A stretch of DNA of 64,000 nucleotides from Nitrospirota bacterium (lineage in GTDB: Bacteria > Nitrospirota > UBA9217): assembly GCA_963818475.1 (NCBI GenBank), contig CAWFSF010000005.1:160001-224000 (forward strand), written 5' to 3'. Shown here piece by piece: positions 7,230 through 55,607 of the stretch. A model generated the notes under the pieces. The model made no database searches. It saw nothing but the letters and a program-made list of their open reading frames with translations, and had not been told where the DNA came from. A program made the position numbers and the translations under genes. The first letter of the stretch is position 1; each line of letters starts with the position of its first letter.

Positions 7230-7390
7230 TCGAGGCTACGTGTACGTTCACTTTCGTTGCGACCCGGAAACTTGCTCACCCCGCTATACGGGGCTTTGTC
7301 GATGGGCTTCAAAAGGCAACGTTTCCCTCACCTCCTGCCATCCAAGCTACATGGCTTTGGCTTTTTGCCATGGCGGGACTTGCACCCGCG
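7230..7390 (-). mobile_element. Group II intron 5' (domain I) remnant without an RT ORF
   Basis: GCGGGTGCAAGTCCCGCC...GTAGCTTGGATGGCAGG...GAAGCCCATCGACAAAGCC...GGGTCGCAACGAAAGTGAAC...GCCTCGA resembles bacterial group II intron domain I; GTGCG start absent. Confidence 0.7.
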
Positions 7391-7448
7391 AAATACGGTT
7401 ATGAGCTTTAACACTGCAAAGAAGTGACGCTGTGACGCAATCAGCCAT

Positions 7449-47024: not shown

Positions 47025-49040
47025 TTATTGCTCAGGCTGCTTTCTCTTTGTCATAATCTTTGAAATCTCGCCGCTGATCTCACCGACGTCATAGGGTTTA
47101 CATACCACTCCGCAGAAACCGTATTTTTCATATTCGGCCATGATGGGGTCCCTTGAATAGCCGCTCGAGACGAGGACCTTTGCATCAGGAGCAAGCGCTT
47201 GAAGGCTCTTGACGGCGTCTTTGCCTCCCATCCCGCCGGGAATGGTCAGATCCATGATCACGACATCGAAAGGGTTCTGTTCACTCTCTGCCTTCAGGTA
47301 TACCGCTATCGCTTCCTTGCCGTCCCTGGCATATTCCACAACATACCCAAGCTCGCTGAGAATATGGCCGGCAACATCTCTTACCAATTCTTCATCATCC
47401 ATGATAAGGATCTTCCCTTGACCTGCCTGAACTGATTTCACTTCCTGGGTCACCGGGGAGAGCGTGTCCCTCAATGCGGGAATATATACGGTGAATGTCG
47501 TGCCGGCCCCTGCTTTTGATTCAACGGAAATTTTCCCGTCGTGCCGGTTGATGATGGATAAAACCGTGGCAAGACCCAACCCGGACCCGTTCGTTTTTGT
47601 CGTGAAATACGGTTCAAATATTTTCGGCAAATGTTCTTCCGGGATGCCTGTTCCCTCGTCGCGGAACGTGATCTTTACATAATCGCCTGCTTTGAGCGAA
47701 GCGGCGTTGTGTTTTTTCACGACTGCGTTTTCAAAAGCCAGATGAACTGCTCCCCCCTTCGGCATGGCATGGACTGCATTAATGATCAAGTTGTTGAACA
47801 CCTGGCTTATCTGGCCCCGGTCAACCTCGGCGCTCCAGAGGGACGCGGGAACGGTATGAAAGCATTTAATATTGGAGCCCGACATCGCAAACGTGCTCGC
47901 CTCCCTGGCAATGTCAAGGAGCGATGCGGGTTTCTTTACCGGGGCGCCGCCCCTGGCAAACGTCAGCAGCTGCTGTGTCAGGTCGGCGGCCATTTTAGCC
48001 GCCTTTTCCGTTTCAATAAGCCTGGCGAATGATCGGTGCTCGGCACCAAGCTGCATCTTCACCAGACTGACGTTTCCCAGGATGGAGGTAAGCAGGTTGT
48101 TAAAATCATGCGCCAGTCCGCCTGCAAGCAAGCCGAGCGATTCTATCTTCTGGATCTTTTGCATCTCCTGTTCCATGCGATATTGCGCCGTGACATCGCG
48201 GAATACGAGAACGATCCCGATGGTCTTGCTGTGCTTGTCCTTGATCGGCGCGGCGCTGTCTGCAATGACTATCTCGGTTCCATTCTTTTTTATGAGCGCA
48301 GTATGATTGGCCAGACCGACGATCATCCCGGATTTGAGGACCTTCTCCACGGGATTTTCGCATTTTTCTCTCGTGTTTTCGTTGATGATGTTGAACACCT
48401 CGGTAAGCGGTTTTCCCAGGGCCTCTTCATTCGTCCAGCCGGTGAGCTCTTCACTTACTTTGTTGAGCAGCGTGACATTGCCGTCGATATCCGTGACGAT
48501 GACCCCGTCGCCAATGCTTCTCAAGGTTACCGCCAGACGCTCCTTTTCAGCAGCTATCGCGTCTTCCGCTTTTTTCTTCTCCGTGATGTCGCGCGTTATC
48601 CCGAGTAAAGCCGTGATCCCATCCTTTTCATTACGGAACGGAACCGCACGGGTTTCAAGCCAAAGGCGCCGTCCTTTCAACCCGACCATCTCGAAGGTGA
48701 ATATTCCTGACCCGCCGTTGCATACGTCCCTGGTCAGCTTCATGAAGTCGTCACGATACGCTGAAGTAACAAGAGGACAGACGCATTTCCCCTTGACCTG
48801 TTCGAGCGATTCAGCCTCGATCATGTTCAAACCCGCTCTATTCATGAAGATCAGGTTTCCCTCGGCATCTATTATCTTTACACATTCCGGCTCTGTTTCG
48901 ATAATGGAGTTCGAAAGATACTCGCTTTGTTTCAGCTGCTCCTTCATCTTCAAAAGATCTTTGTTTATGCGGAGGATGGAATAATGCCTCCACCCGGCCA
49001 TAAGAACAATGAGGATAATTACAAAACTGATATGTTCCAC
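47025..49040 (-). CDS. Hybrid PAS-PAS histidine kinase with receiver domain
   Basis: GGLAHDFNN H-box, N/G boxes, C-terminal REC (DLTIPGG). Confidence 0.92.
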   Translation of the reverse strand: MEHISFVIILIVLMAGWRHYSILRINKDLLKMKEQLKQSEYLSNSIIETEPECVKIIDAEGNLIFMNRAGLNMIEAESLEQVKGKCVCPLVTSAYRDDFMKLTRDVCNGGSGIFTFEMVGLKGRRLWLETRAVPFRNEKDGITALLGITRDITEKKKAEDAIAAEKERLAVTLRSIGDGVIVTDIDGNVTLLNKVSEELTGWTNEEALGKPLTEVFNIINENTREKCENPVEKVLKSGMIVGLANHTALIKKNGTEIVIADSAAPIKDKHSKTIGIVLVFRDVTAQYRMEQEMQKIQKIESLGLLAGGLAHDFNNLLTSILGNVSLVKMQLGAEHRSFARLIETEKAAKMAADLTQQLLTFARGGAPVKKPASLLDIAREASTFAMSGSNIKCFHTVPASLWSAEVDRGQISQVFNNLIINAVHAMPKGGAVHLAFENAVVKKHNAASLKAGDYVKITFRDEGTGIPEEHLPKIFEPYFTTKTNGSGLGLATVLSIINRHDGKISVESKAGAGTTFTVYIPALRDTLSPVTQEVKSVQAGQGKILIMDDEELVRDVAGHILSELGYVVEYARDGKEAIAVYLKAESEQNPFDVVIMDLTIPGGMGGKDAVKSLQALAPDAKVLVSSGYSRDPIMAEYEKYGFCGVVCKPYDVGEISGEISKIMTKRKQPEQ

Positions 49041-49340
49041 GGTAACGGCTCCTTTGGGGAGGGATTTTTGAAAATATACGTTTTGCAGGTTTTTTTGCAG
49101 CTCATAACCGCTGAGCTAGGCTGGCCTGGAACCATTCTTGTTCATCGGAGGATATCACAGAAAATCGCTGAAAGTAAAGGGATTATGTGGAGGTGTGGAG
49201 CGGTCCGGCGCGAACTATGGAGTCAGCGGATTTCCGCGGTTTGCGGGATTGTCGGCTTGTTCGGTTGCCGGCAGCTCACGACGGCCTTCAATGGGAGGCG
49301 GAGTTGGAGGGCTTTCCTGATCACAAAGACGCTTTCATAT

Positions 49341-49460
49341 TCAATCGACCTCGCACCCTTTGTCCCGAAGTGCTTTGAAGACCCCGGCGAGATGTTCCCT
49401 CCCGCGGACTTCGACGGTAATGACTACCTTTGTTCTGCCGATGGGCACGTCGCTGTCCCT
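49341..49460 (-). pseudogene. C-terminal ACT-domain remnant resembling threonine dehydratase
   Basis: RDSDVPIGRTKVVITVEVRGREHLAGVFKALRDKGCEVD* with no upstream body. Confidence 0.6.
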
Positions 49461-49472
49461 GATGAGGGAACG

Positions 49473-49509
49473 AAAAAAGCCGGCAGGGACCTCGACCCCT
49501 GCCGGCTTT
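49473..49509 (-). terminator. Intrinsic terminator of the candidate ncRNA
   Basis: GCCGGCAGGG-loop-CCCTGCCGGC followed by T6 on the minus strand. Confidence 0.85.
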
Positions 49510-49529
49510 CGTTATTGACAATAAATTAC

Positions 49530-49823
49530 GGCGTTGCTTTGGACCCGCATCTTAATCATACCGTTGATCCTCGGGATATTCGGTAGGAACGATCACTTCG
49601 AAGATCTGCTCTCGCAAATCCTGAGATGGTTCGTTTCCTTCCGAATTCTCCTTCGGCCTCCGGGGCTTTCCGCTTACCAATCTCTGGTGACCTGCAAACC
49701 GGCAGTGTAACAATCCTCACGGACTGCTGTTTGCCGTTTCCGGATCACGCCTGGTTGGGCTTAAGGCCCTCAACGAAAGTTAAGGATACGTTTAACACTT
49801 CTCAGTGTCGGTCCGGCAACGCC
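49530..49823 (-). ncRNA. Candidate large structured non-coding RNA (about 294 nt), family not recognised
   Basis: Ends pair (GGCGTTGC/GCAACGCC, GGACC/GGTCC, CGTATC/GATGCG); four GNRA-capped hairpins; G-U pairs favour the minus strand; TATACT upstream, terminator downstream; no credible ORF. Confidence 0.75.
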
Positions 49824-49831
49824 TTACTGTT

Positions 49832-49861
49832 AGTATACCTCCCTTTGTCAAGCGGTGACAT
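49832..49861 (-). promoter_or_regulatory. Promoter of the candidate ncRNA with overlapping palindrome
   Basis: TATACT at 49837-49832, 8 nt before the first paired base; ATGTCA 18 nt upstream; TGTCA-N5-TGACA at 49846-49860. Confidence 0.55.
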
Positions 49862-49982
49862 TGAGGATGTGCAAGGGGAAACAAAAAAGCCATCACCTTG
49901 CTGGTACTTTAGTCGAACTTGTTTAAACTCGTTGCCGATCTCCCCTCCGGCAGGTATCGGTGATCGTTGGCGCATGCGTTCT

Positions 49983-50729
49983 CTAACCGGCTTTCCGCAT
50001 CCTTTCCGCCTCGCGCTCGCGTATCTTTGAATCGATAAGCCCCTGAAAGCGCATCGCCAGTTCCGGCCCTTTAGCCCCCTCGCCTTCGTGCTTAAAGAAC
50101 ACGAAGGCACGCTCCCATTTCTGCGCCAAGATCATTTCCACCCATTGCGACAGATCAGCGTCCGTGTAATCGGAGCGGCGCAGACGCAGGTATCCCCAGT
50201 CCGCCGTACTGACGATCTCCGTCGCCGGGTCCTCATCAGCATCGGCGATGCACAGGCTGCATCCCTTTTTCCGCAGGAGGTCCAGGATCGGTCCGTCGAG
50301 CCAGGATGCGTTGCGGAACTCGAATGCGCATGACGCCACCTCGGGGATAAGAGCGAGCATTTTCTCCAGCGCTGCCGCGTTCGCGGGAAAGGTCCTGGGA
50401 AACTGAAACAGGACGGGCCCCAGCTTCTGGTCCAGCGTTGCCAGAGACCTGAAGAGGTATTCAATTTCCGAACCCACGTTCATCAGCCGTTTCCAGTGCG
50501 TTATCACCTGGGGAGCTTTGAGCGCAAACACAAACCCGTCCTTCACCTGTTCCGCCCAGGAACCGAGCACCTTTTCTGTAGGCATGTGATAAAAGGTGTT
50601 ATTGATCTCCACCGTGTTGAGGCGTTCACTGTAAGCGTGAAGCATCTCTTTGGGAGAGATTTTCTCAGGATAGAATGCCCCCTTCCATTCTTTGTACGAG
50701 TATCCGCTGGTGCCGACGTGGACTTTCAT
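49983..50729 (-). CDS. DUF72 family protein
   Basis: VGTSGYSYKEWKG.FYP, VEINNTFY, LGPVLFQFP. Confidence 0.92.
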   Translation of the reverse strand: MKVHVGTSGYSYKEWKGAFYPEKISPKEMLHAYSERLNTVEINNTFYHMPTEKVLGSWAEQVKDGFVFALKAPQVITHWKRLMNVGSEIEYLFRSLATLDQKLGPVLFQFPRTFPANAAALEKMLALIPEVASCAFEFRNASWLDGPILDLLRKKGCSLCIADADEDPATEIVSTADWGYLRLRRSDYTDADLSQWVEMILAQKWERAFVFFKHEGEGAKGPELAMRFQGLIDSKIREREAERMRKAG

Positions 50730-50957: not shown

Positions 50958-52567
50958 TTAAAATGACTTACCATCTCCCACGGTCTTCTCCCGCATCACA
51001 TCGCGGGCGCTCTTATCATCGCGCATTCGCAGGAAAACGGGCTGTCTCATGACAGCATCCGCAGTCCAACCGGTAAAACCAACCTCGCAGACCAGCTCCG
51101 GCTTTACCCAGGTGACCGGGGCATTGGTCTCCGGCTTGACGCTGAGCGGGCTTTCTTTGCGGATCAGGGGCTCCAGTTGTTCGCGAATGTCCTTTAACAT
51201 TTTCGAGGTGAAGCCCGTTCCCACCGAACCGATCGGGACCAACGCGTCCCCTTCATAGGCGCCCAGGACGAGGCTGCCGAAATATTTTCTGCCGCCCCCC
51301 GCTTCCGTGAAGCCCGCGATCACTCCCTCCTGCGTCAGCCGCGTCTTTATCTTCAACCACTGCCCGCTCCTTCTGCCCGCCTCGTAGGTGCTTTGGCTAT
51401 GCTTCGCAATGATCCCTTCCAGCCCCTTTTCTTTGGCGACCCGGTAGAACAAGCACGCCCTCTTTCGCCACGTGATCGCTGAACCGTATCCGCGGGTCGG
51501 AGGGAAGTATTTTTTTCAGGACCTCTTTTCTCCTGAGAAGAGGCAGGTTCGTCATATCATGTCCCTGAAAGTAGAGGAGGTCGAAAACAGAGTAGAGCAG
51601 GTGGCCCTTTCCGGAATCCTGGTAATTCTGCAGCGCCTGGAAATCAGGCCGTCCCTCGTCATCCACCACGACGACTTCGCCGTCCAGCACAGCGTCAAAT
51701 CCTAATTTCCGCAAAGAGTCCACAACAGGAGAAAACCTTTTGTTAAACGATAGATCCGTTCCGGGAATAGAGCGAAACGTCCTTGCCCCGGATCTCGGCA
51801 ACAGCCCGGTATCCGTCCCATTTCACCTCAAAGATCCAATCCGGATGATCGAACGGTTCCCTGGCCACGGTCGCGAGCATCGGCTGCAGAGCGTGCGGCA
51901 TTGGTTTGGCCGGTGCATCCTTCAGGCCTTCGCTTTCCATGGCTTCGTGAAGACGGATCTGGTTCATTTTTTTTTGCTGGAAGGACCTCTCCGGAACCGC
52001 TTCGAGCATCTCCTCCAGCGTTTTATGGGACACCACGGAGCGGTTTTGCGTGAGGATGTCCCCTTTGGCAGGGTCACGGTCTTTTTTCTTCAGAAGAAGC
52101 CACGACTTCCCGTCCTTTCCGGTTTTCACCAGCGCAAATTCACCGTGCAGCTTTTCCCCTTCGAGCACGAACTTCAAATCCCCTTTTCTGAGGCCCTCCA
52201 GAAGCAGTTTCTCGTTTTCATTCTCATCTCGTGCCAAAGGGTGGTGATAAAAACCCCGGTCCCAGATGATGACGCTTCCTGCGCCGTAATTGCTTTCCGG
52301 AATAACGCCCTCGAAATCCTTGTACTCCAGCGGGTGGTCTTCGACCATGACCGCCAGCCTTTTCAGGGAAGGATCGAGCGAAGGGCCCTTAGGCACGGCC
52401 CAGCTCTTCAGCACCCCCTCGAGCTCAAGCCTGAGATCATAATGAAGCGCCCGGGCCGCATGCTTCTGAACAACGAATATGCGACGGCCCACCTCTGGCC
52501 GAAGGCCTGGCTCCGGTTCGGGTGTTTTCTCGAATTTGCGCTTTCCTGTATATTCAGTCAATTTCAT
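50958..52567 (-). CDS. ligD: LigD 3'-phosphoesterase plus ATP-dependent ligase (two frameshifts)
   Basis: FVVQKHAARALHYDLRLE, SWAVPKGP; EVKWDGYR, LDGEVV, LEGIIAK, WVKPELVCEV. Confidence 0.92.
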
Positions 52568-52587
52568 GACAACTGCCTCGTTTTATT

Positions 52588-52716
52588 ACCACGGAGTCAC
52601 GGAGAGAGAAAAATCTGAAGTTCCGAAAAGAACGACTGTAACGCCCACTGGCTTCAGATGTGCTATAGTTACCTGATTTCTGCCTTTGTTTCGCGGTTTC
52701 TCCGTGCCTCCGTGGT
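52588..52716. repeat. Intergenic palindromic repeat element
   Basis: ACCACGGAGTCACGGAGA ... TCTCCGTGCCTCCGTGGT. Confidence 0.65.
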
Positions 52717-52730
52717 CATGTTTAATTGCA

Positions 52731-53625
52731 TTACAAATGCGGCAGCTTCTGTTCTTTCACGAGCACCTCATGAAAAAGGTCGCCCATTCTTTCTGCCCTG
52801 CGCACAGCTTCCGAATGCATGATCTGAAGCTTTTCCGGGTCTCCCCTCTCCAGGTCCTCCCATGCAAGCGGGAACGAAACAAATGGTTTTTCCCTGGCAC
52901 GCAGGGAATAAACGCAGATCATGGTCTTCGAAGCGTCGTTCTGAGACCAGTTGATAAAAACCTTAGCTGTCCGGTATTGTTTCGCCATCTTCGCGGTCAC
53001 CAGGTCCGGATAATGTTTTTGCATGATCTCTGCCACGGCCTTTGAAAATATCTTCGTATCATCAAAGGTCGTCTCTTTTCGATTCAACGGAACAAAAGCA
53101 TGGAGCCCTTTCTTGCCCGAGGTCTTTACAACACTGAAAAGTCCCATGCGGAAGAGCAGGTCCCGAAGTATCAGCGCCACTTTGGCGCAATCCAGGATGC
53201 CCGCCCCATCTCCGGGATCCAGGTCGAAGACCATGGAATCGGGCGTCTCCGGCGATCATTGCCCTGGCCAGCGGCACGTGAAGCTCAAGGGCCGCAAGGT
53301 TCTCCGCCCAGATCAGTGTTTCCAGATCATTGACCAGGCACTGCGTCATCGGCTTTGCATCGCCATGCACGACCTCCGCTGTTCTCACCCATTCCGGACG
53401 GTGCGAAGGACAGCGTTTCTCGAAAAAGGAACTTTTTCCCACTCCTTCCGGATAGCGGGTAAACGTCACGGCCCTGTCTTTCAGATGGGGCAGCATGAAC
53501 GGCGCGATCCCGCGATAGTACTCCAGGATCTGAGCCTTCGTGAAGCCATGGGAGGGATAGAGGTCTTTTTCCAGGTTCGATAACGGGAGCCTTCTCCCGG
53601 CCATTTCAACGAATGTCCGGCTCAT
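52731..53625 (-). CDS. Stand-alone LigD polymerase (AEP primase-polymerase) domain, frameshifted
   Basis: LSNLEKDLYP, RYPEG, FFEKRCP, FDLDPG, KTSGKKGLH, YSLRAR. Confidence 0.92.
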
Positions 53626-54407
53626 CGATGCTCCTTCACTTTCTGCATGCTCTCTTCAAGCGCGGCGACCAGATCGGCCGGGCCTTCTCCCTCTTCTTCC
53701 GCCAATACAGGCGCCTCAACGGTCGCCTGCTCTTTTGCCTTCTGCTTCAGGAGGTCCATGATCCTTGTCCTGCGCTCGTTCGCATATTTCCCCGGCTCAA
53801 AGTCATGCATCATGTCCTTTATGCTCTTGACTATCCGCGTTTCTTCTTCAGCCTCGATCGTGCCTTTCTTCGGCGGGATGTCTTCGTGGAGAAGTATTTC
53901 GTCGCTGTAATGAAGGGTGATCAGTTCCAGCGCTCCCTCCCTGCTTATGACCGTCACCAGATATTCACGCTCGGCCAGCACGAATTTTGCCAGCCCGGCC
54001 TTGTTCGTCCGGTTCATCACCTCGACCAGCAGCTGATACGCTTTTTCTCCCCCTTTCGCGGGAACGAGATAATAGGGGTGATCAAAATAGATCGGGTCTA
54101 CTTCCTTCAGATCGATGAATTCAAGGATCTCGATCGTACGGCTCCGCTCCGGGGACAAGGATTCCAGTTCCTCGTCCGTCACCAGGACGTACCGGTCCGG
54201 CGCTGTCTCGTATCCCCTGACGATCTCGTCCGGGGGTACCAGCGTTCCCTCTTCCGGACAGAACATTTTTCGCGAGAGACGGGAGTAGTCCTTGGTGTGG
54301 AGCAGATGAAAGGAGACCCGCCCGGGTTCGAGGGCCGTGACCAACCGGACCGGTATCGCCACGAGGCTGAAACTGATCGTCCCGCTCCATATTCCCTGTA
54401 CGGCCAT
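53622..54407 (-). CDS. ku: Ku protein (NHEJ)
   Basis: IWSGTISFSLVAIPV, IVRGYE, VDPIYFDHPYYL, DLVAALEES. Confidence 0.93.
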   Translation of the reverse strand: MAVQGIWSGTISFSLVAIPVRLVTALEPGRVSFHLLHTKDYSRLSRKMFCPEEGTLVPPDEIVRGYETAPDRYVLVTDEELESLSPERSRTIEILEFIDLKEVDPIYFDHPYYLVPAKGGEKAYQLLVEVMNRTNKAGLAKFVLAEREYLVTVISREGALELITLHYSDEILLHEDIPPKKGTIEAEEETRIVKSIKDMMHDFEPGKYANERRTRIMDLLKQKAKEQATVEAPVLAEEEGEGPADLVAALEESMQKVKEHR

Positions 54408-54450
54408 GGCATGCCTCCTGGTTGACGATATCTAAAGATACAACACCTTT

Positions 54451-54550
54451 GACACGGATCACGGCGGATAAGAGCCTGATAAGGTCGGATTCTTATCTGT
54501 CTTCGATTTTCATCCCCCTGATCAGACGTCCATCCGACCCTATCCGTGTC
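54451..54550. repeat. Intergenic palindromic repeat element
   Basis: GACACGGAT ... ATCCGTGTC. Confidence 0.55.
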
Positions 54551-54613
54551 CAAAGTTTTTCCTGATCTCTCCTGCGTCCTGTGTGCGAATTATCCTTAAC
54601 TCGGGTCTTCCCC

Positions 54614-55387
54614 TCAGGCAGCTTTCTTCAGGCTCGCTTCAAGAGCCTGAAGCAGCTTGTCTGATTCCGTCGGTCTCAGTTGCCTGGGGGGCAGGACCGC
54701 GATCTTTTCTCCCCGTGCTTTTTTATCGATCATGAACTGCAGCTTCTTCTGATGCTCGTTCTGGAATTTGCGCCGGTTCAAAAGGAACGGTCAACTGGTC
54801 GATCAACTCGCTCCCGATCTTCAGTTCTTTCTCCGACAGGGGAACATGCTCCAGGGCGAGGGATCCCACGGATACCACTTCGTCGGCATAGCGCAGGGTG
54901 TTCAGGCGAAGGATATTCCCGCTCGCTTGCAAGGCCCCGAGGATAGGACCGTTTTCTCATGGTCCAGGTGCAGATGCCTGCCACGTCCATCTCCTGCAAC
55001 GCCTTGACCAGTGCAGTATATCCTTTTGCCCGGACATCCGGCTCCAGGTAGTAAACGCGAGCAAGGAAGAGCGGGGTCGATCTGTTCCACTTTGACGAAT
55101 TCGTGGACCTCGATCATGCGGCTGCTTTCCGATGCGGTCTGTTCGAGCTCCTCCGGATCGACCAGGATATATTTCCCCTCCTCCAATTCAAACCCCTTGG
55201 TTTGTTCTTCCGCCGGCACCGGCCGATTTTCATAGGCACAGATCATCTGCTGGCGAAGTCTCACCCGGTCATGTTTGTGAAGGAGGTGAAACTGGATCCG
55301 CTCCTCCCGTACCGCGGAATGCAGCTTGACGGCCACGTCCGTTTCACCAAAATGGATATTCCCTTTCCAGATCGTTCCCGCAGCCAT
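54614..55387 (-). CDS. ku: Second, divergent Ku protein (several frameshifts)
   Basis: IWKGNIHFG, IQFHLLH, KGFELEEG, LRYADEV, LLQALEASLKKAA*. Confidence 0.88.
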
Positions 55388-55607
55388 TGAAGTTCCTCCG
55401 TATCCCATCCTTTAATTGGGACTGATACTATCTTCTATGTAAAGGATATCACCGGATAGCGCAGGCGTCAACGGTGCGCCGGTCCGTTCCCTGATAGGAA
55501 AGTTGCAGCGGTGAAAGGCCGGCCTCCCCTCGCCGGTTTGACTCCCTGCGCGGAAGGGGCTACCTTTAACGGTAGGTAGAAAAAATGATCTCGAAAGGAG
55601 GAAGGAT

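Follow-up and report, generated by a model that had tools for sequence, protein, structure and literature searches.

A multi-domain structured RNA and its paralogs in a class of Nitrospirota

Results and Discussion

A stretch of 64,000 nucleotides (nt) from a Nitrospirota bacterium (GTDB lineage UBA9217; assembly GCA_963818475.1, contig CAWFSF010000005.1, positions 160,001 to 224,000), here referred to as the window, carries on its minus strand a structured RNA that reads from position 49824 down to 49529 and whose two ends are paired (Table 1). We are highly confident that this RNA represents a real, new and stand-alone structured RNA family. Its members have promoter-like and terminator signals of their own, a fold conserved through compensatory changes, a near-universal presence in the GTDB class and an expansion into paralogs. 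The explanation that we favor overall, with moderate confidence, is a multi-domain RNA of about 300 nt that stands alone, acts in trans and probably binds protein, of which the window copy would be a lineage-specific paralog belonging to a group referred to here as clade A. An initial annotation, made from the sequence of the window, had proposed an independently transcribed, large and highly structured non-coding RNA (ncRNA) at this place; the minus-strand letters match its description, and the proposal agrees with the promoter and terminator signals, the covarying homologs and the relatives in RNA libraries described below.

A structured RNA with its own promoter and terminator signals

A 301-nt stretch spanning the RNA had a minimum free energy (MFE) of -123.1 kcal/mol (z -8.16), compared with -84.7 +/- 4.7 kcal/mol on average for dinucleotide shuffles, and 0 of 100 shuffles folded as well. 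The plus strand of the same region gave a weaker fold (-108.2 kcal/mol, z -4.3), and the RNA was assigned to the minus strand because of its many G-U pairs together with the promoter and the terminator. The TATACT previously noticed upstream was found as a -10 box ending 7 nt before the RNA, and a consensus scan placed a -35-like hexamer at 18 nt spacing from it (9 of 12 matches). The intrinsic terminator reported earlier was also recovered as a stable hairpin, which is kept in clade A copies. It had been overlooked by a simple terminator scan, in our opinion owing to pairing between part of the T run and the flanking A run. A frame of 54 amino acids (aa) within the RNA was rejected as coding, since frameshifts or stops interrupt it in 8 of 9 clade A homologs.

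Between the terminator and the next gene on the minus strand, which encodes a PAS-histidine kinase-receiver protein (47025-49040), lie about 430 nt without a recognizable gene (49041-49472). A plus-strand open reading frame (ORF) of 219 aa (48927-49586) overlaps this gap and had no Pfam match. On the other side, a moderately conserved element, AAGG[C/T]GAT[C/G]G...GTTTCCC, is located 45-100 nt upstream of clade A copies from several genera (49880-49915 in the window) and is a candidate insulating terminator or regulator site.

Table 1. Positions of the RNA, its helices and signals, and of the neighboring LigD and Ku reading frames in the window.
Feature	Position	Strand	Remark
Structured RNA core, 296 nt	49529..49824	-	closed by P1; clade A paralog
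P1 5' strand (AGGCGTTGC)	49816..49824	-	pairs with 49529-49537
P1 3' strand (GCAACGCCG)	49529..49537	-	U run directly after it in the core clade
P2 5' strand (GGACC)	49810..49814	-	pairs with 49541-49545
P2 3' strand (GGTCC)	49541..49545	-	partner of GGACC
Hairpin H1 (ACACT-GAGA-AGTGT)	49795..49808	-	helix 18-22/32-36 of alignment A4
P4 5' strand (CGTATCCT)	49783..49790	-	pairs with 49546-49553
P5 5' strand (TCGTTG)	49771..49776	-	pairs with 49561-49566
P4 and P5 3' strands	49546..49566	-	consensus structure
Left domain	49661..49770	-	GGG/CCC closing helix, CAACC/GATTG, GTGATC/GGTCAC, GAAACGG/CCGGTTT, GTGA-capped hairpin
GTGA hairpin	49709-49728		in left domain
Right domain	49567..49658	-	GGCC/GGAT, GGA/TCC, TTCG/CGAA, 17-pair long arm capped by GAGA
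GAGA-capped long arm	49589-49634		in right domain
-10 box (TATACT)	49832..49837	-	7 nt before RNA start
TTGACA	49846..49851	-	only 8 nt upstream of -10
-35-like hexamer (ATGTCA)	49856..49861	-	18 nt spacing; consensus scan, 9/12 matches
Intrinsic terminator	49473..49509	-	11-12 bp G+C-rich hairpin, then T run; -29.5 kcal/mol, z -4.71
LigD ligase, C-terminal part	50958-51452	-	split ORF
LigD phosphoesterase and ligase start	51743-52567	-	split ORF
LigD Prim-Pol, two overlapping pieces	52731-53234 and 53062-53625	-	split ORFs
Second Ku ORF	54902-55408	-	covers only half of the Ku domain

Homologs and covariation

The genome that contains the window has a second copy with 86% identity (BLAST), and the similarity spans the promoter, the RNA and the terminator, from about 110 nt upstream to about 75 nt downstream. 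Copies were also present in related genera, and clade A copies from different genera are 79-91% identical. A covariance model built from ten copies (R1; 304 positions, 92 pairs) added two diverged copies, for a total of four paralogs in this genome; both diverged copies have a terminator and one has a recognizable -10 box. A further model, R2, contains only 20 base pairs and for this reason works mostly as a sequence profile. The window copy scored 289.3 bits with R1 and 191.5 bits with R2. In another genome of the same genus, a 3' fragment alone was found (L006, G003:C4:156166-156346; 90% identical to the window copy over RNA positions 209-301), which could stem from decay of a copy or from the assembly.

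When 39 matches were aligned to the model (alignment A4), 84.3% of cells formed standard pairs, compared with 34-45% when the 3' partners were slid by 1-3 columns. Both sides changed in 74 of the 92 pairs, and 0 of 500 shuffles reached the observed values. Because A4 was fitted to the model and the two-clade split of the family gives spurious column correlations, the clades were also tested separately. In MAFFT alignments of one clade at a time, compensatory changes occurred in 18 of 73 predicted pairs for clade A and 18 of 44 for clade B, so that each clade supports the fold on its own and the covarying homologs expected by the initial annotation exist. P1, H1, P5, the CCGG helix and the long arm were recovered in each clade separately; P2 was recovered within clade B only and was seen within clade A in individual folds. 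A MAFFT alignment of both clades (A5) mixed their registers, and A4 and A6 (457 and 465 columns) were too wide for a better model. All-against-all column covariation, calculated for pseudoknots and extra pairs, was swamped by the two-clade split.

The helices differ in how they are conserved. P1 was paired in 95.6% of cells, and four of its nine pairs do not vary among the 38 rows with letters. P2 is absent from R1 and was entered by hand; family-wide (CGRACC/GGUYCG) it was 77% paired with both-side changes in 3 of 6 pairs, and one of its pairs is AU in 19, GC in 7 and UA in 1 of the sequences within clade B alone. Pairing reached 91.8% in H1, all five pairs of which were altered on both sides, 85.2% in P4 (5 of 7 pairs changed on both sides) and 85.9% in P5 (5 of 6). 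The helices of the left domain (6-12) were 66-89% paired with both-side changes in nearly all pairs, and those of the right domain (13-20) 78-100% paired. Together the conserved helices take up about two thirds of the nucleotides. Paired segments that are invariant in sequence are P1, CCGG, GGG/CCC and CAACGG.

Most of the secondary structure drawn in the initial annotation is consistent with these results. Its pairing of the ends through P1 (GGCGTTGC/GCAACGCC), P2 (GGACC/GGTCC) and CGTATC/GATGCG was borne out, and its GAGA hairpin, GTGA hairpin, GAGA-capped long arm and ATTCGG/CCGAAT helix are all part of the covariation-supported consensus. The helix drawn for a three-way junction, AACCaGGCGTG/CACtGCCGGTT, with the hairpin CCG-GAAA-CGG did not hold across homologs: it was 66.7% paired, compared with 65.3% for shuffles, of which 53 in 500 did as well. 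Covariation favored GTGATC/GGTCAC and GAAACGG(C)/(G)CCGGTTT (helices 9-10) over these pairings, in a comparison made on A4, which was fitted to a model that already holds helices 9-10 and thus favors them.

Absence from known RNA families

The search against Rfam 15 (4227 models) covered the window at gathering threshold, positions 49350-49950 at E<=10 and three paralog loci (L002, L042 and L043) at E<=1. At gathering threshold nothing matched at the RNA locus, in agreement with the initial annotation, which recognized no known RNA family. At E<=10, the matches within 49350-49950 were to the terminator hairpin or chance microRNA matches, none of them within 49529-49824; a chance mir-204 match (49824-49897) overlaps only the first base of the RNA. 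Every match at the three paralog loci was far below gathering threshold. At L002 a CsrC match (1517-1875) ran across the copy with 16.7 bits (E=0.17, cut-off 61 bits), and other CsrC matches were to the terminator hairpin only (13.9 bits in the window copy and 23.1 bits in the L043 copy, with the same cut-off of 61). A Thr_leader match at L043 (2281-2353; 28.1 bits, 55-bit cut-off) overlaps the last 22 bases of the copy. The sole gathering-level match in the window was a group II intron domain D1-D4 (RF02003) at 7252-7391 on the minus strand (112.1 bits, E 2.9e-24).

The genome has canonical genes elsewhere for RNase P RNA of bacterial type A (RF00010; G000:C2:505670-506043, 278.3 bits), 6S RNA (RF00013; G000:C6:2028120-2028299, 87.6 bits), the small signal recognition particle (SRP) RNA (RF00169, 72.9 bits) and transfer-messenger RNA (tmRNA; RF00023, 189.6 bits), the latter two also above cut-off. 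None of these four models matched at the window RNA locus. Since all four RNAs are present elsewhere, the window RNA is not a diverged form of one of them, and the lack of their hallmarks had been noted correctly. No description of such an RNA was found in the full-text literature on non-coding and structured RNA of Nitrospirota, a search that had supplementary files, with possible unnamed candidates, outside its scope.

Distribution in Nitrospirota

With R1, the RNA was found in 63 of the 64 genomes of the GTDB class, which consists of a single family with the same 64 genomes, at 1-5 matches per genome; the genome without a match is 68% complete. R2 likewise matched 63 of 64. In a sample of the phylum, all 27 genomes of the family matched, and R1, under the strict filters set for both models, had no match in any of 123 genomes from 21 other Nitrospirota families. 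Six of these 123 gave short marginal matches of 14-21 bits with R2, which were taken as noise. A pattern scan of 185,579 species genomes returned at least 119 loci. Among the pattern loci listed, 30 contain 34 model matches, and the 30 records thus confirmed all carry the name Nitrospirota, Nitrospirae, Nitrospiria or Nitrospiraceae in their titles; the other 89 loci listed come from many phyla, none titled Nitrospirota, and had no model match. The family amounts to about 100 copies in total. That almost every genome of an uncultured class carries the RNA argues for a function that is important and specific to the lineage.

Paralogs occur in tandem or in clusters, often beside the core copy described below (G006:C90:4685-12884; G010:C12:189063-197701 and 350590-351295; G016:C3:47631-49241; G007:C67:84597-87827). 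One genome has four copies within about 8 kb.

Genomic context of the two clades

A tree of 60 copies separated clade A from clade B, with a few divergent copies outside both. Clade B, the core type, was present in every genome; clade A comprises the window copy and other extra paralogs. Of 37 clade B copies, 34 are arranged head-to-head with a conserved row of genes, divergent and upstream of the RNA, for a chorismate-binding enzyme (TrpE/PabB-like), an SMC-like ATPase, thymidylate kinase (tmk), DNA polymerase III delta' (holB) and a PSP1-domain protein. The core gene is thus passed on vertically at a fixed place. The SMC-like ATPase was considered as a partner and rejected: at E<=1e-5 it was found in 27 of 27 genomes of the family and 23 of 123 elsewhere, and its synteny is uninformative because full-length relatives exist in families that lack the RNA.

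Comparison of the flanks of clade A copies revealed no neighbor in common. The conserved unit of clade A reaches from promoter to terminator and conservation ends there, which also led us to reject a larger mobile unit around these copies. Multiple copies in variable places, and the 79-91% identity of clade A between genera, could be expected of an RNA that is part of a mobile element or defense system, such as an omega/HEARO-type guide, a retron or a group II intron fragment. We consider this very unlikely given the boundaries of the conserved unit, the synteny of the core copy across the class and the lack of an ORF cluster common to the clade A flanks, whose ORFs were scanned with Pfam in part; no HEARO, group II or retron model matched at the RNA locus, and the covariance model does not confirm the one pattern match in viral contigs, so that a phage origin was also discarded.

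Downstream of the RNA, ORFs vary in family and strand among the 60 copies. A large structured element that ends in a terminator-like hairpin or U run might be an attenuator, and the RNA could then be a cis-regulatory leader or riboswitch for the gene that follows. The genomic comparison largely refutes this reading, to which we assign a very low probability: the downstream genes differ in identity and orientation, the next minus-strand gene in the window begins about 430 nt past the terminator, tandem copies occur, the conserved neighbor of the core copy is divergent and upstream, and a terminator or U run follows the RNA directly.

The promoter survey examined 60 copies and found a -10 box in 47, most of which have an extended -10 (TGnTATAMT). 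From the end of the -10 box to P1 there are 4-8 nt in clade A and mostly 42-71 nt in clade B. In 17 of the 47 promoters, which come from both clades, TTGACA precedes the -10 box by 8 nt (e.g., G000:C5:451055-451074). Genome-wide, the spacing between TTGACA and the -10 box peaks at 17 nt (52 matches), and 8 nt is at background level (5 matches, 2 of them from the RNA family).

Clade B copies thus have a leader of about 45-60 nt, which contains a near-invariant box, G(A/G)TCTTTGAAAG or TCTTTCTAAAGA, located 25-30 nt before P1. At the DNA level the box is an imperfect inverted repeat (e.g., L042:1955-2000, L090 and L131); it does not occur in the window copy. From its sequence the box could be an operator or a processing signal. 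RNAalifold gave no convincing hairpin for the leader (-3.5 kcal/mol). Pairing of the box with an internal GAAGAG was rejected by eye, as the internal segment changes in some sequences in which the leader is constant.

The clades also differ at the 3' end, where clade A has a separate hairpin terminator and clade B has 5-7 U directly after the 3' strand of P1 with no separate hairpin. This arrangement suggests that in clade B the closing helix may itself act as a terminator. A further difference concerns a hairpin in clade B (columns 108-124 of alignment A7), whose GCTGC/GCGGT stem has AAGTTGA as a conserved loop of 7 nt; in clade A a GNRA-capped hairpin takes its place (the GTGA hairpin in the window). 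This replacement of the core hairpin hints at a different tertiary or protein contact between the paralogs.

Relation to the neighboring NHEJ genes and to CsrA

Upstream of the window RNA, and in the same orientation, lies a cluster of genes for non-homologous end joining (NHEJ; Ku, LigD) and a DUF72 protein, and the initial annotation had considered a link on the grounds of this adjacency, proposing a tally of neighbors. No Ku, LigD or DUF72 was found by tblastn (E<=1e-3) in any of the 55 loci (300,231 bases) that hold the other 59 copies examined. The NHEJ link is thereby refuted as a property of the family, and the adjacency to Ku-LigD-DUF72 is, judging from these loci, incidental. That the RNA is a cofactor or regulator of the adjacent genes would draw on adjacency and shared orientation at the window locus alone, and appears extremely improbable when the second copy in the same genome follows a different ORF of 414 aa, the ancestral core copy is syntenic with unrelated genes, LigD is spread here over four ORFs and one Ku is truncated. 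The NHEJ cluster itself (50958-55408, minus strand) is degraded in appearance, or contains frame errors.

A role as a CsrA sponge had also been left open on the strength of ten GGA triplets. The count is correct, and several paralogs together with ten such triplets are what an RNA that titrates CsrA/RsmA might show. The number is not enriched compared with dinucleotide shuffles (7.7 +/- 1.9, p = 0.175), and in 8 of the 10 triplets two or more bases are paired in the MFE fold. CsrA (PF02599) was not found in the genome of the window; a search of the class detected it in one genome of 64, and in none of 32 of high quality, whereas 63 of the 64 have the RNA. We regard the sponge role as having next to no probability.

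Relatives in RNA libraries

Part of the stretch is present in twenty public runs, always as a small share of its words; six of the runs are RNA libraries. Four metatranscriptomes, each from a different study, were compared with the window at >=80% likeness. All four contained contigs of 137-258 nt that are 80-99% alike and fall within 49526-49819; one, 38, one and two contigs matched per run, and the summed word depth reached about 2500 in one run. No contig from the four metatranscriptomes covered 49300-49525 or 49820-49975. In one run (X18) a separate contig fell on 49985-50050, within the DUF72 gene. Near relatives of the RNA are thus abundant in RNA libraries as RNA-sized pieces. The contig ends near P1 and the parts of the stretch without cover provide weak hints, and two loose contig ends by 49806 and 49809 in a run other than X18 look to us like sequencing adapter.

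Proposed function

By analogy with characterized RNAs, the family is most likely a trans-acting RNA that binds protein or is catalytic. We propose that it acts in trans as a folded molecule, with the invariant P1/P2 clamp tying its 5' and 3' ends. In core copies, the clamp and the U run directly after it probably double as a terminator. The invariance of P1 in sequence exceeds the needs of pairing, which suggests recognition by a protein or enzyme beside termination and end protection. The conserved junctions and loops would most likely form a binding platform for one or more proteins, and extra paralogs such as the window copy may be diversified or dosage copies. A function as a protein-binding scaffold or regulator, by analogy to ribonucleoprotein (RNP) scaffolds or regulators of the 6S, Y, OLE or raiA type, is attractive and we put it forward tentatively.

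Several points weigh against this interpretation. No partner protein, target or activity was identified, and the mechanism is an analogy; nor was a conserved neighboring gene for an RNA-binding protein seen among the copies compared. The fit of A4 to its model inflates pairing, and the two-clade phylogeny inflates the shuffle control, with many spurious 'covarying' column pairs. Both model searches used strict filters, which weak relatives in other families could escape. The matches in RNA libraries are assembled contigs of relatives, in which ends, strand and level are not readable and carry-over of DNA is possible.

The catalytic alternative would make the RNA a ribozyme that, for example, removes the leader of about 45-60 nt from core copies or performs a reaction in trans. 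Size, multi-domain fold and sequence-invariant paired segments resemble those of large ribozymes, and the ribozyme-like complexity noted in the initial annotation is real, with catalysis a putative property. Core copies are moreover transcribed with a leader that clade A copies lack, and the contigs from RNA libraries stop near P1 without entering the conserved terminator, a weak hint. No known ribozyme family in Rfam 15 matches, however, no cleavage site or catalytic motif was identified, and the leader box looks like an inverted repeat at the DNA level. A ribozyme seems unlikely.

Rather unlikely, too, is a base-pairing regulatory small RNA (sRNA) or RNA sponge that uses exposed loops as pairing sites. 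Such a role could account for several paralogs per genome that differ in their loops, as in multi-copy sRNA families, and for the strong promoter and own terminator. Conserved helices, however, contain about two thirds of its nucleotides, the RNA greatly exceeds typical sRNAs in both size and structure, and no conserved single-stranded seed or target was identified, target prediction not having been made.

A bolder proposal appears doubtful to us, though it deserves to be stated: that the window holds a founding locus of a new large functional RNA class, a class-universal ribozyme or essential RNP core of about 300 nt that is highly expressed in sediments and groundwater-type habitats, terminates itself via its closing helix and has diversified into paralogs. 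If this were true, the RNA would have a biochemical role without a described counterpart.

The RNA is well delimited: its boundaries are clear, its covariation is strong, about 100 copies are available and there are signs that it is highly expressed. It offers a concrete target for structure determination by RNA-only cryo-EM, biochemical screening and metatranscriptome mining. For annotators it provides a marker RNA of this Nitrospirota class, and its distribution corrects a tempting guilt-by-association link to NHEJ.

Comparison with known RNAs

Few large bacterial RNAs have elaborate conserved folds, and such RNAs have in the past proved to be ribozymes, RNP cores or global regulators. Several better known RNAs share individual features with the window RNA. 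It resembles RNase P RNA in the closure of the molecule by P1, in its two multi-helix domains and in the sequence conservation of some paired segments, but the canonical type A gene lies elsewhere in the genome and RF00010 does not match at the window RNA locus. RNAs of the 6S and Ms1 type are abundant, stable RNA polymerase-binding RNAs of a few hundred nt; the window RNA is similar in apparent abundance and stability, in size, in its paired ends and in its own strong promoter. It differs from 6S RNA, which the genome encodes elsewhere, in being branched with two multi-helix domains and in having no rod with a central bubble.

Bacterial Y RNAs of the YrlA type pair their ends in a sequence-conserved stem that is followed by a U tail, and the 5' and 3' ends of the present family pair in the same manner, with a U run directly after the stem in core copies. 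In contrast to Y RNAs, the window RNA is much larger and matches no Y RNA model, and no Ro60/TROVE (PF05731) was found in the genome of the window, which is 91% complete. With CsrB/RsmZ sponges it shares several paralogs and GGA triplets, but only one of the 64 genomes has CsrA, and the triplets are not enriched and for the most part paired.

The closest resemblance is to OLE, GOLLD, ROOL, raiA and HEARO, which are large 'ornate' orphan bacterial ncRNAs. Like these, the window RNA is a stand-alone gene of hundreds of nt with many covarying helices, is confined to one lineage, occurs in environmental RNA libraries and has a function that is not evident from context. Unlike these, neither the locus nor its paralogs are matched by an Rfam model, the host phylum is Nitrospirota, and the family occurs in almost all genomes of its class, where it is syntenic and has tandem paralogs. 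It is new as a family; in kind it is a further member of the small set of large, ornate bacterial RNAs.

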